40,207 nt of DNA from sequence record CP000711. One strand, written 5' to 3'. The stretch's first letter is position 1; each line of letters begins with the position of its first letter. A program made the position numbers. The DNA comes from Enterobacteria phage CUS-3. Positions 1-6,000 of the stretch are shown here, in pieces.

Positions 1-3000
1 TTGCAGGTTCGATTCCTGCAGGGGACACCATTTATCAGTTCGCTCCCATCCGTACCAGTCCGCAAAATCCCCTGAATATCAAGCCTTCCGTAGATTCACA
101 GTTCGTCATGGTTCGCTTCAGATCGTTGACAGCCGCACTACATGACGGGTAAAAAGTGGATAAAATAATTTTACCCACCGGATTTTTACCCATGCTCACC
201 GTTAAGCAGATTGAAGCAGCAAAGCCGAAAGAAAAACCATACCGCCTACTCGATGGTAATGGCCTGTACCTTTATGTCCCTGTATCAGGGAAAAAGGTAT
301 GGCAGCTTCGCTACAAGATTGACGGTAAGGAGAAAATCCTGACCGTCGGAAAATATCCACTTATGACTTTGCAGGAGGCAAGAGATAAAGCATGGACCGC
401 GAGGAAAGACATCTCGGTTGGCATCGATCCGGTAAAAGCGAAAAAGGCTTCGTCTAACAACAATTCCTTTAGTGCGATTTACAAGGAATGGTACGAGCAC
501 AAGAAGCAAGTCTGGTCAGTAGGCTATGCAACTGAACTTGCAAAAATGTTTGATGACGACATTTTACCTATCATCGGCGGCCTTGAAATTCAGGATATTG
601 AGCCGATGCAACTGCTGGAAGTAATCCGCAGATTTGAAGATCGCGGTGCAATGGAGCGAGCCAACAAAGCCCGCAGAAGATGCGGCGAGGTTTTCCGTTA
701 CGCTATTGTCACTGGTAGGGCTAAATATAACCCGGCACCTGACCTTGCTGACGCCATGAAGGGATACCGCAAGAAGAACTTCCCGTTTCTTCCTGCAGAC
801 CAGATCCCTGCATTCAACAAAGCACTGGCAACATTTTCAGGAAGTATCGTATCGCTCATTGCGACCAAAGTTTTACGCTACACAGCCCTAAGAACGAAAG
901 AGCTTCGTTCCATGCTATGGAAGAACGTCGATTTTGAAAACAGGATTATCACCATCGACGCCAGTGTGATGAAGGGACGCAAAATTCATGTGGTCCCGAT
1001 GTCAGACCAGGTGGTTGAACTTCTCACTACGCTAAGCTCCATCACCAAACCAGTATCAGAGTTTGTTTTTGCCGGGCGCAACGATAAGAAGAAGCCAATC
1101 TGCGAGAACGCGGTTCTACTTGTGATCAAACAAATCGGCTATGAGGGTCTAGAAAGCGGTCACGGATTCAGGCATGAATTCAGCACGATTATGAACGAGC
1201 ACGAATGGCCTGCTGACGCTATTGAAGTGCAACTGGCACATGCCAACGGCGGATCTGTGCGCGGTATTTACAACCATGCTCAGTATCTCGATAAGCGCAG
1301 AGAAATGATGCAGTGGTGGGCGGATTGGCTTGATGAGAAGGTAGAGTGATCCGCCTTAACAACTATCGAAGAGCACAAAGCCTTGTGTGTCTCATAGGCT
1401 ATGAAACAATCATTTTACATGGTTACTTCACTACTTCCGCACAATATGATATCGTTCACAATCTAAAAACATTAATAATTTATCCATTACCGCGGTTAAT
1501 GCCCGTCGCTTCCAACGGGCTTTTTTGTAAATTATATTTTTATTACCTTATATTAATATTGGTAATATGTCTGCATGATGTTTTATATTTATTGCGTGAG
1601 CTTCGCATGATAGCTGGAGCATCTCTTGTCATCACTAATTAGCTCCGCTTTATCCGTTCTTGCCCATATTATATTTCTTTTTATTATTTTTGCTGGATTA
1701 CCGGCTGCTGCACACATAGATGGCACATCTTTAGTTACAATACTCCCATACCCAATGACAGATCCGCTTCCAACAGATACTCCTTTCATTATAGAGACAT
1801 TTCTCCCTACCCATACGTAACTAGATATAATGATATCTTTTGCCCAATTAATCCTTTTTTTGCTATGAATATCAAATATAGGATGCCCATCTGATGCACG
1901 CAAAATAACATCTCTTGCTATCATGCAGTCATGGCCAATTGTAACATTGCACTTATCAGTGACGACTTCAAAACCTGCACCTATTGTCGTTCTTCTACCG
2001 ATAATAACTTTTGAACCTTTTGTTGCGACAATATCACCTTTAATCTTACTGTTTTTATGTATTCTTACGTAATTATTATCACCCCTAAATATTACGGTAA
2101 GCCATCGACACTCAACATCATCTTCTATAATAAGTTTGTTATTGTTTCCATTGAACTGAACTTTATTCTCTTTGCTATTTACAAGATCTCCACATACAAA
2201 AACATTACCTGACCCATTATCATCAACGGAAAACGAGTCTTGAGTCTTGAGTCTTGAGTCTTGAGTCTTGAGTCTTGAGTCTTGAGTCTTGAGTCTTGAG
2301 TCTTGAGTCTTGAGTCTTGAGTCTTGAGTCTTGAGTCTTGAGTCTTGAGTCTTGAGTCTTGAGTCTTAACATATTAGTATCCTACGTTATTTTACCACTA
2401 GTTACTTTTCTTGTCATTAAAAAGCATTTAAATTTTTATATTTAATTTCGTTGACGTCAATGTTTTTTGCCAATGTACTTACTTCTTTATGTGATCAGTT
2501 CATATTTTTGACGCCAACGAAACATTTAGTGCTTCCCTTCTATTAAGTCTAACCTAGCTTTTATTCTTTCTATTTCTCTGCGCTGCCATGCTGCCTCGAT
2601 ATAGAATAAGAGATCAGGTCTGACCCCCCATCTAGATCCTGCTGGCGTTATTTCAACGCGCTCAATGATGTCTTCCATTACCATCACTGGATTATCATCC
2701 TCATCAACAATGATGCTCCCGTCATTATCAGTCAGCGGCATTTCCCTTTGGCCAGTAATGACGTCATCATATACTGCGGGATAATCGTCATAGCAAAGAA
2801 AGGCATAGCGGCATGTTGTGCTTTCTTCTTCCATGAGTCCGTGAGAAATAAGAACATCACGAAGTTGCTGCGCGATTACACCATGATGTATCCTCGCCCC
2901 TTCTTCCCCCTTTATAGCGACAGCGTTCAGCCATTTATAAGCGATATACCTGACGTCACCCCAGGCATCCAGCAATGTTTCGTCAGGAGAGACCGGCTCT

Positions 3001-6000
3001 GTCTTTAATGTTCCGTCACTGGTAACCACAGGATTGGAGCCAAGATAAACTATCGAGAACCTGTTTCCCGGACCACCAAGAGCATTTACATTATCAAGAT
3101 AAGGTTTAACATCTCCGTTCTCAAAAAGATGTTCGAGTGCGTTATATACCGCGCGACGTGGAGTACTGCTTCTGGAACCATGCAACGTTATCATTGCACC
3201 ATCTGCTGAAGACGTTGTTTCACCGCCGCTAACGATTAATCTCTGAGCGGTAACATCATCAGACGGTACTTTCTTCGCAATAATGGCGTAATTACCCTCA
3301 AGTTTGACTTCCGCGCGAACTTGTCCTGATGTACCTGCATGGACAGTCAGTGACTGGACGGCAACATCATCTGTGAAATCAACGGGTACAGGAACCGTCC
3401 TCACGCCTGACGTCGACATAAAAGTAGGAAGCGTTCTGTTAGGAGTGGCTCCGTAGACAAAATCCCTTGAAACAAATTCTTCCTGTTTAATTTTCACCCT
3501 GAAACAATACAAATCAGCCGGGTGACCATCGTGAACATAAGGATATTTTCTGTTGTTATCCCCTATGCTCCATGGGTTTAGAAAGTCTTCCCCACCGAAA
3601 ATGTAGTACAGCCAGTTGTCTTTGATACAAACTGAACCAACACCAACCGCAGAGTTAACTATTCCGCCCTGATAAATCTGATCAGTAACATTAACCCACT
3701 CTACATTATCCAGACTCCACTCATTGACGTTAACTCTGGTCATAAATGTTCTTGGATAGTTTCCTGCATAACGGTTATCAGGTTCTCCTCCTTCCCACTC
3801 ACCAAATGCGCGCTCACTGCCAAAAATAATCAGCTCATCGCCAACTTTGGCAAAAGGAAGGTTTGAGTGATGAACATTATTTGGGAAGCGAAGAGAATTC
3901 CATGATGTACCTAAATCAGAGCTTCTGTGCAATGAACTACCGGGTTGAGTACTTAATGTCCCCCTGGTCGTCAGATACAGAATGCCATCATAATATTTTA
4001 CACATGGCTCAGATGCATTCGCCTCATATTCTGCAGGTATGCGTCTGCGAACAAAGCTACCAGGAGAACCGAAAGCATCAGAGAAATAGAGTATCCCAAG
4101 CTCGCGTGGACCAATATCACCATTATGGTAGCCAACAGCAAAACTGTTATCGCTAATCGTCGCAAAACTGTGAATCTCAGTAACAGGAGTGCTTCCGTCA
4201 ACAAAAGAAGGAATAGTTCCAAGACTGGTTTTTCTCCATGGTGACGAGTGAAATGATGTACCAAAACTCCAGTATCTACCCTCGTTATTCTGATCCACAT
4301 CCTGGGTATTTTGCGTCGTAACTGTAAAAGTATTTTTATCAATAACAGTAGTCACCGTCATATTCCCGGTAACACCTGTAACACCAGAGTTTGAGAAGTT
4401 GACAAAATCACCAGCAAATAATCCGTGATCAGTAATGCGAATATAAGCGACTTGCTGATTTGCTGCTTTCGTTATACCACCATAAACGCGAAGGCTGCGA
4501 CTCATTGGGCGATCCCACAACTCTGCAACCTGCAGTTTATTTCCGCTCACGGTCCGCGTCTCAATTACAGCAAAAAGGCGATTTCTGACAACCCCCATAC
4601 TCATGCAGTGATAGTTAACTGTGGGATAGTTTTCATGTAAATCTGTAAGCCATTCCGGCGTTGTCCAGGTCTTCCCGTCATCTCCTGAGCGAACCCATGC
4701 AACATGGAGGTTATTTACACCATGGCGGTCTCCAGCCATAAAAGGCGCATAGATGACATTGTCATATACAAACGTTTTATCCTGCGTCCAGGCGTTGTAC
4801 CACGGTGTATCTGTAATTTTAAATAACTCTCCCTGGATAAAATCTTCAGAAACATAAAAAAGAGGCTGACCCGGTATTCTCTCAAATAAAAAACGAGCAT
4901 TTTTAAATCGACTGACATCTGGAAGAGTTGATACTTTAAAAGTAAGCCCTCGCCCATCTATCTTTTCACCACCTGTTGCAACAGAAAGTAATTCTGATAG
5001 AGCTGATGTATCATCATGAACACCATCACCAATAGCCCCCCAACCTCTTACATCATAACTGTCTCTCCATCTTGCTATCTGAAGTTTTGGGTATTTATTC
5101 GCTCCATCTGTGTCTTCTAATTGCTGCCGTAACTGATCAGGATCATACTTCAGCACATTAGGAAAATAGAACTGCTGCGCACCATACGCATCATAAACAG
5201 CCATAGAATGGCCTTGCACGGTAACGAATTTGGCAATCTGTCCGTTATATACCGGATATCCAGCAGCGTTAATGATTATTGGTTGCGAAACAGGAACGTG
5301 AGAACCGTCTTCATTCTCCACATAGACCTGAATCTGGTTTTCTGTATTTACAGGATCAGTGTCAATTTTACCGATATAAATTTTGCCATTGGCTACGGCT
5401 TTAAAAGAACGCGCCATAGTGAAGAGTTGCGAAGGCATCGATACGATCACATTGGCTGTAATGTCTGTCATTTAATTTGCTCCAGATACAAGGAATCGCC
5501 GAAGCATGGCTACGGTGAATTTTGGGCATAAAAAAACCCAGCCGAAGCTGGGTCGTTGCGTTGGTTATCTATCAGTAGTTATGTACTGAAGGAGGTAATT
5601 CTTTATTCTTAAGTCTCATCCATGCGGAAAGATTCGTTGGTCCGTCTGGCTCATTAATATCAACATCTCGTGTATGGTTGATTAAAACATCTCTCGCCAT
5701 TCCGATAACATACGAGAATTCATGACCGTAGTCGTAGCATCTGCCGGAATAGTTCGATTGAATTTGTTTTAGCGCCTGATACAGTTCGCGGAATAATGCC
5801 TGTGAGCGGTTGGCATAATCCCATAGCCATACAAGGCTGTTTACTTCTTTTGCAGAAAGCTCGTTGGTTTTCTTCTCTTGTTTGCCAATGAACTCACCTT
5901 CAAGTGGAACTCGAGCTGCAAGTGATAGTGCTTCGGTAAACTGCTCCTCACTGATTTCTTTGTACGAACATCCAAAATGGGATTTCAGTGACGACCACAT

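Follow-up and report, generated by a model that had tools for sequence, protein, structure and literature searches.

Phage CUS-3 is a P22-like phage that forms plaques on the K1 hybrid strain EV36 (PMC10883804), and its chimeric tailspike serves as a textbook case of how tailspikes evolve by modules. In this work we analysed 40,207 nucleotides (nt) of Enterobacteria phage CUS-3 DNA (sequence record CP000711; the whole stretch is called the window below), and in particular the tailspike gene siaK1 and the neighbouring acetyltransferase gene neuO. The analysis covers the domain architecture, the conserved residues, the sequence identity to CUS-3, NeuO and endoNF and, for neuO, the number of repeats and the reading frame. 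Earlier publications already cover the chimeric tailspike, siaK1, neuO and the poly-psi locus of neuO. One review, citing Stummeyer et al. (2006), describes the N-terminal domain of CUS-3 as common to HK620, Sf6 and P22 and its catalytic domain as common to K1F, and counts CUS-3 among the endo-N-acetylneuraminidase phages on the same authority (PMC5380687). Work on the neuO contingency locus goes back to 2005 and has yielded a crystal structure and, recently, phage-resistance phenotypes.

Among the closest described systems, the tailspikes Sf6 gp14 and P22 gp9 resemble the CUS-3 protein in the head-binding domain, up to a YDPDQ hinge, and in the position of the gene at the end of the late operon, but their receptor-binding parts are beta-helix endorhamnosidases that act on O-antigen. 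The endosialidase of phage K1F, endoNF (gp17; PDB 1v0e, 3gvl and 3gw6), shares with CUS-3 the architecture from amino acid (aa) 114 to the C-terminus, including the Asp-boxes, the stalk, the chaperone and the cleavage serine, whereas its particle-binding domain is of the T7 gp17 type and that of CUS-3 is of the P22/Sf6 type. The spike of phage vB_EcoP_ZX5, like those of matching E. coli prophages, has the catalytic and chaperone block in common with CUS-3, but its N-terminal attachment region, of about 230 aa, is a different one, and its temperate chassis is epsilon15-like.

Architecture of the CUS-3 tailspike

The tailspike open reading frame (ORF) lies at 2526..5471 on the minus strand, as are all the spike features given below, and encodes 981 aa plus a stop codon, which agrees exactly with the coordinates of an earlier sequence-only reading of this DNA. 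Its product is identical over the full 981 aa to UniProt/UniRef entry Q2L3B7 (Q2L3B7_ECOLX, 'Endosialidase'), a sequence present on 406 contigs. GenBank records entitled 'Enterobacteria phage CUS-3' and annotated with neuO and siaK1 gave nucleotide matches of 99.5-100%, with 100% for FN394986 and related records; the matches in phage collections are partial CUS-3 records and the CUS-3-like phage phiv205-1. At a coverage of at least 80%, the tailspike plus neuO module was found in 137 of 5,426 complete E. coli genomes. The gene closes a late operon of the P22 type and lies downstream of the ant/immI moron. Taken with the Pfam and PDB matches described next, the ORF is almost certainly siaK1, the gene of the well-studied CUS-3 tailspike, in which a P22-type attachment domain is joined to a GH58 endosialidase that is an orthologue of K1F endoNF; no sequence feature contradicting this assignment was found within the CUS-3 protein.

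The N-terminal 113 residues (5133..5471), with the YDPDQ hinge at their end, form a P22-type head-binding (virion attachment) domain. The Pfam Head_binding model PF09008 is covered in full (1-113 of 113, E=5e-66), and in a PDB search aa 1-118 matched the solved tailspike structures of Sf6 and P22. The sequence-only reading had described the first ~110 residues as close to the P22 domain, and this holds with one correction: identity over aa 1-113 is 91% to Sf6 gp14 versus 75% to P22 gp9, so that 'Sf6-like' is the more exact label. Local alignment paired aa 214-1064 of K1F gp17 with aa 114-980 of CUS-3 at 63.6% identity, and because the homology starts at aa 114, the fusion point is placed directly after the hinge. 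The first endosialidase-homologous segment is a linker, aa 114-145 (5037..5132), which in local and multiple alignments is 53% identical to aa 214-245 of K1F gp17.

The catalytic region begins with the endosialidase N-terminal extension at aa 146-212 (4836..5036; End_N_terminal, PF12218, E=2.9e-37). It is followed by the catalytic six-bladed beta-propeller at aa 213-662 (3486..4835; End_beta_propel, PF12217, E=1e-233), in which a beta-barrel is nested at aa 324-406 (4254..4502; End_beta_barrel, PF12195, E=1e-46), and by the stalk, a triple beta-helix or tailspike domain, at aa 663-817 (3021..3485; End_tail_spike, PF12219, E=6.6e-78). The propeller and barrel models are covered over their full length (1-367 of 367 and 1-83 of 83, respectively). 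In the PDB search aa 145-817 matched the endoNF crystal chains (1v0e, 3gvl and others) at E=0, and the last residue of these chains aligns with T817. The propeller and endoNF values exclude chance as an explanation of the domain matches, and the Pfam and PDB matches also rule out a catalytic domain from another glycan depolymerase family.

A regular-expression scan of the whole protein for S-x-D-x-G-x-x-W returned two matches only, SGDDGKTW at aa 262-269 (4665..4688) and SSDLGTSW at aa 517-524 (3900..3923). They are, letter for letter, the two sialidase Asp-boxes quoted in the sequence-only reading, and the first of them is invariant in all seven endosialidases of a multiple alignment. The catalytic and substrate-binding residues of endoNF are H350, R549, E581, R596 and R647, and the beta-barrel of that enzyme is a polysialic-acid binding site (PMC12632334). 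In the alignment these five residues correspond to H250, R456, E488, R503 and R554 of CUS-3 (5/5 conserved), and the second-shell endoNF residues Q330, D331, H527, S528, K585 and N699 are likewise conserved in CUS-3. No catalytic residue varies among the seven endosialidases, and most of their active-site neighbourhood is invariant too.

The last part of the protein, aa 818-981 (2529..3020), is the intramolecular chaperone domain. Its first residues, aa 818-878, match the Pfam model Peptidase_S74, 'chaperone of endosialidase' (PF13884, E=2.7e-10), and the endoNF construct of stalk plus chaperone domain, PDB 3gw6, matches aa 698-979 (E=1.8e-93). The annotation of K1F gp17 lists two mature peptides, gp17* and gp17-CTD, with their boundary at S911. 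This cleavage serine aligns with S818 of CUS-3 within the conserved motif VVT|SDG, where the chaperone domain of CUS-3 would likewise be released, as predicted from the literature and the K1F annotation. We concluded that the chimera described in the sequence-only reading, a P22-type head-binding domain followed by an endosialidase and an endosialidase-type C-terminal chaperone, is accurate: the Pfam search returned the full ordered set of endosialidase domains, comparison with endoNF gave a clear homologue, and the CUS-3 tailspike is the same protein. It is not a new discovery.

The near-complete conservation with the experimentally characterised endoNF suggests how the spike might act; enzymatic activity, chaperone cleavage, receptor modification and superinfection exclusion are attributed to the locus here from the literature or by homology. 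The P22/Sf6-type head-binding domain would plug the trimeric spike into the tail hub, and the propeller active site (H250, R456, E488, R503 and R554) would bind and cleave alpha-2,8-polysialic acid, probably assisted in binding by accessory polysialic-acid sites in the beta-barrel and the stalk. Endo-cleavage of this polymer by CUS-3 is thus a predicted activity, and by digesting the K1 capsule it would let the virion tunnel to the cell. Folding of the trimer would be driven by the C-terminal 164 residues, which would then be cut off at S818. K1 polysialic acid as the probable receptor, proposed in the sequence-only reading, agrees with the identity of the protein as the CUS-3 tailspike, with the endoNF homology and with the CUS-3 literature.

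Substrate preference and the cassette common to phage ZX5

A few observations leave room for a functional difference from endoNF. Overall the CUS-3 tailspike is only about 62-64% identical to endoNF. The endoNF residue Q853, which we provisionally take to be a binding-site residue of the stalk, is M760 in CUS-3. In the seven-sequence alignment there are also lineage-specific insertions and deletions: a 7-aa loop, FVDGSTP (aa 422-428, nt 4188-4208), and, within the chaperone domain, an insert of 8 aa (about 827-834 of the alignment) are present in CUS-3 and ZX5, whereas the K1F-type enzymes lack both. The loop stands five residues upstream of H434/S435, which belong to the active-site network. 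The endosialidase endoN92 of phage phi92 has extra residues at both insert positions. Because of the limited identity and these indels, the fine substrate preference of CUS-3 could differ from that of endoNF.

The same lineage is linked by a near-identical block of DNA. Window positions 2558..4950 (minus strand; about aa 174-971) align with positions 2501-4893 of locus L002, in the gene for the 1039-aa spike of the Uetakevirus phage vB_EcoP_ZX5, over 2393 bp at 99.46% nucleotide identity, with 13 mismatches and no gaps. Upstream of codon 174 the identity between CUS-3 and ZX5 is about 50-57%, and it falls again in the final ~10 codons; since identity drops at both ends of the block, both recombination breakpoints appear to be intragenic, at about aa 174 and about aa 971. 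The ZX5-type N-terminal segment was found in 58 complete E. coli genomes at an identity of at least 99%, and an endosialidase domain is annotated in 25 of the 25 matches listed for this segment. The CUS-3 module and a ZX5-type spike occur together, roughly 170 kb apart, in at least nine of the genomes listed, all of them complete and of the K1 type, namely NC_008563.1 (APEC O1), NZ_CP012625.1 (SF-468), NZ_CP025328.1 (ExPEC XM), EC69, AH21G053, AH19D088, UID2404240036, 10035004-3 and APEC E16002. Each of these strains is a double lysogen and has two endosialidase cassettes that are nearly identical, and because they reside in the same genomes, CUS-3-type and ZX5-type prophages could exchange the cassette. 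The finding is a minor one and leaves the assignment of the spike as an endosialidase tailspike unchanged.

If these observations are put together, the CUS-3/ZX5 lineage might not be equivalent to endoNF, in that it would tolerate O-acetylated K1 polymer or act on the K92 polymer, and the 99.5% cassette would be actively exchanged between P22-like and epsilon15-like podophage chassis co-resident in K1 strains. We consider this combined proposal unlikely. Also unlikely is an outright shift in preference, that is, an endosialidase that favours O-acetylated K1 or the alternating alpha-2,8/alpha-2,9 polymer of K92, in which case neuO would not exclude the kin of the phage. It would fit the modest identity to endoNF, the extra residues that CUS-3 has in common with endoN92, whose annotation gives K1 and K92 polymers alike as substrates, and the fact that the phage encodes an acetylase of its own receptor, but the catalytic residues are all invariant across the seven endosialidases, as is most of the active-site neighbourhood, CUS-3 forms plaques on the K1 hybrid EV36 (PMC10883804), and it is found in K1 strains (PMC3046976; PMC13001214).

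That the tailspike is instead a decaying relic without a functional virion, in a prophage kept as a vehicle for neuO, is very improbable: in many isolates CUS-3-like prophages tend to decay (PMC9659370), and the tailspike is split by an IS3-family element in several complete genomes (hits H96, H112, H113, H121 and H130) and in phage phiv205-1, but the ORF in the window is of full length with all catalytic and cleavage residues intact, the prophage is whole, with both att ends and a full P22-like gene set, the identical protein stands on the 406 contigs mentioned above, and CUS-3 plaques on EV36 (PMC10883804). The IS3-split tailspikes are consistent with decay of those prophages while neuO is retained. 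The main tblastn match of the spike in phiv205-1 begins only at aa 70, and a second match lies elsewhere in the record. For CUS-3 itself we retain the reading of an intact endosialidase tailspike.

The phase-variable neuO gene next to the spike

The poly-psi variable-number tandem repeat (VNTR) of neuO begins two nt past the start codon (PMC3046976). Three repeat copies encode one RLKTQDS heptad, and full-length NeuO is made only if the number of copies is a multiple of three (PMC3046976; PMC13001214). In the window, neuO (1589..2372, minus strand) has its ATG at 2372, 153 bp 3' of the tailspike stop codon and on the same strand; the ATG is followed by TT and then by the repeat tract, which consists of 19 perfect copies of 5'-AAGACTC-3' at 2235..2367 (minus strand; TRF, 19.0 copies with 100% matches, and a regular-expression count). 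As 19 is not a multiple of three, the gene is in the phase-OFF state. Three-frame translation indicated that the frame of the ATG terminates after 49 codons and that the catalytic frame, 2234..1589, is intact. Past the repeats, the +1 frame is identical at 214 of 214 aa to the NeuO crystal sequence PDB 3jqy (E=5e-142), and the Pfam scan found a hexapeptide-repeat (Hexapep) domain of the left-handed beta-helix type. The annotation of FN394986 also supports the assignment. The locus therefore resembles the described NeuO/poly-psi locus in its identical catalytic part and in the AAGACTC tract 2 nt past the ATG, and differs in having the 19 copies that put it out of frame; the repeat number varies between isolates. 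An OFF state is normal for this locus and is no evidence against membership in NeuO. A tract one copy shorter or two copies longer would be back in frame.

An ORF of 111 aa at 1589..1924, which RefSeq names 'acyltransferase' in strain IHE3034, was considered as the whole acetyltransferase and rejected, for its frame runs upstream into the repeat tract. It is the tail of neuO read from an internal ATG. The annotation can accordingly be corrected to a phase-OFF neuO allele with 19 repeats in place of a 111-aa 'acyltransferase' fragment.

The sequence-only reading had proposed that the neighbour of the spike gene is an acetyltransferase able to modify the same polymer. The identity to NeuO bears this out; the ORF listed at 1589..1924 is only the 3' part of the gene. 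Its further suggestion, that phage adsorption and capsule modification are coupled in one accessory module, corresponds to the established view of neuO as a mobile contingency locus with a role in superinfection exclusion (PMC3046976; PMC9659370; PMC13001214). NeuO lowers killing by lytic K1 phages, which has been read as superinfection exclusion (PMC9659370; PMC13001214). Expressed from the prophage, the product would be a phase-variable, acetyl-CoA-dependent O-acetyltransferase that acetylates the receptor of the phage's own spike.

A comparable arrangement is found in phage Sf6, where the gene order is tailspike-oac-int. As with neuO in CUS-3, an acetyltransferase gene stands between the tailspike gene and int, and because oac and neuO occupy this interval, it carries receptor-modifying cargo in both phages. 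The two enzymes are unrelated. According to its annotation, Oac is a lipopolysaccharide O-antigen acetylase; it has another polymer as its substrate, and oac is convergent to the spike gene whereas neuO is co-directional with it.

The best sigma-70-like promoter match near neuO, ATGACA-17-TAAAAT with an extended -10 TG, lies at 2389..2417 (minus strand), 17 nt upstream of the ATG, and agrees with the consensus at 10 of 12 positions. A terminator-like hairpin was found between ant and the tailspike start at 5535..5554 (minus strand). These sites are consensus matches only: promoter- and terminator-like sites in this region are at most weakly above shuffled expectation, and the number of promoter sites is not above it.

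Prophage limits and other genes of the window

The window begins and ends with copies of the att core, TTGCAGGTTCGATTCC, a direct repeat of 16 bp located at 1..16 (left) and 40192..40207 (right). Positions 1-30 are the 3' end of a tRNA-Arg gene, argW; a tRNA scan of the window returned no tRNA, as only these 30 nt of argW are inside. In E. coli IHE3034 the left end of the window likewise falls within the argW tRNA-Arg gene, and the genes that follow are intS, one named 'acyltransferase', one named 'phage tailspike protein', then ant and the complete set of P22-type morphogenetic genes. The argW end, the 16-bp repeats, the gene set and the matches to CUS-3 records together indicate that the window is a complete CUS-3 prophage of E. 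coli K1, from att to att. The integrase gene at 156..1349 (plus strand), which is convergent with neuO, encodes an IntS-type tyrosine recombinase (PF00589, PF22022 and PF13356; RefSeq 'prophage integrase IntS'), and the P22-type portal, coat, gp4, gp10 and ejection genes are present.

Upstream of the tailspike gene, Ant, with Pfam matches to P22_AR domains, is encoded at 5572-6495, and the sar RNA, the antisense regulator of ant in P22, at 6497-6564 (plus strand; Rfam, 84.6 bits, E=1.6e-16), just upstream of the ant start. Three ORFs encode Arc-type ribbon-helix-helix proteins, at 6759-6965 (minus strand), 6999-7262 (plus strand) and 7286-7534 (plus strand), the third also with a Mnt C-terminal domain. 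A small plus-strand cargo cluster of three ORFs lies between immI and the genes for the ejection proteins. The first ORF (7577-8176) encodes a 199-aa protein without a Pfam match, the second (8161-8580), which overlaps it, a protein with a type II toxin domain of the YafO family (E=3e-11), and the third (8603-8926) a coiled-coil protein of 107 aa. This cluster (7577-8926) may be a toxin-antitoxin or exclusion moron.

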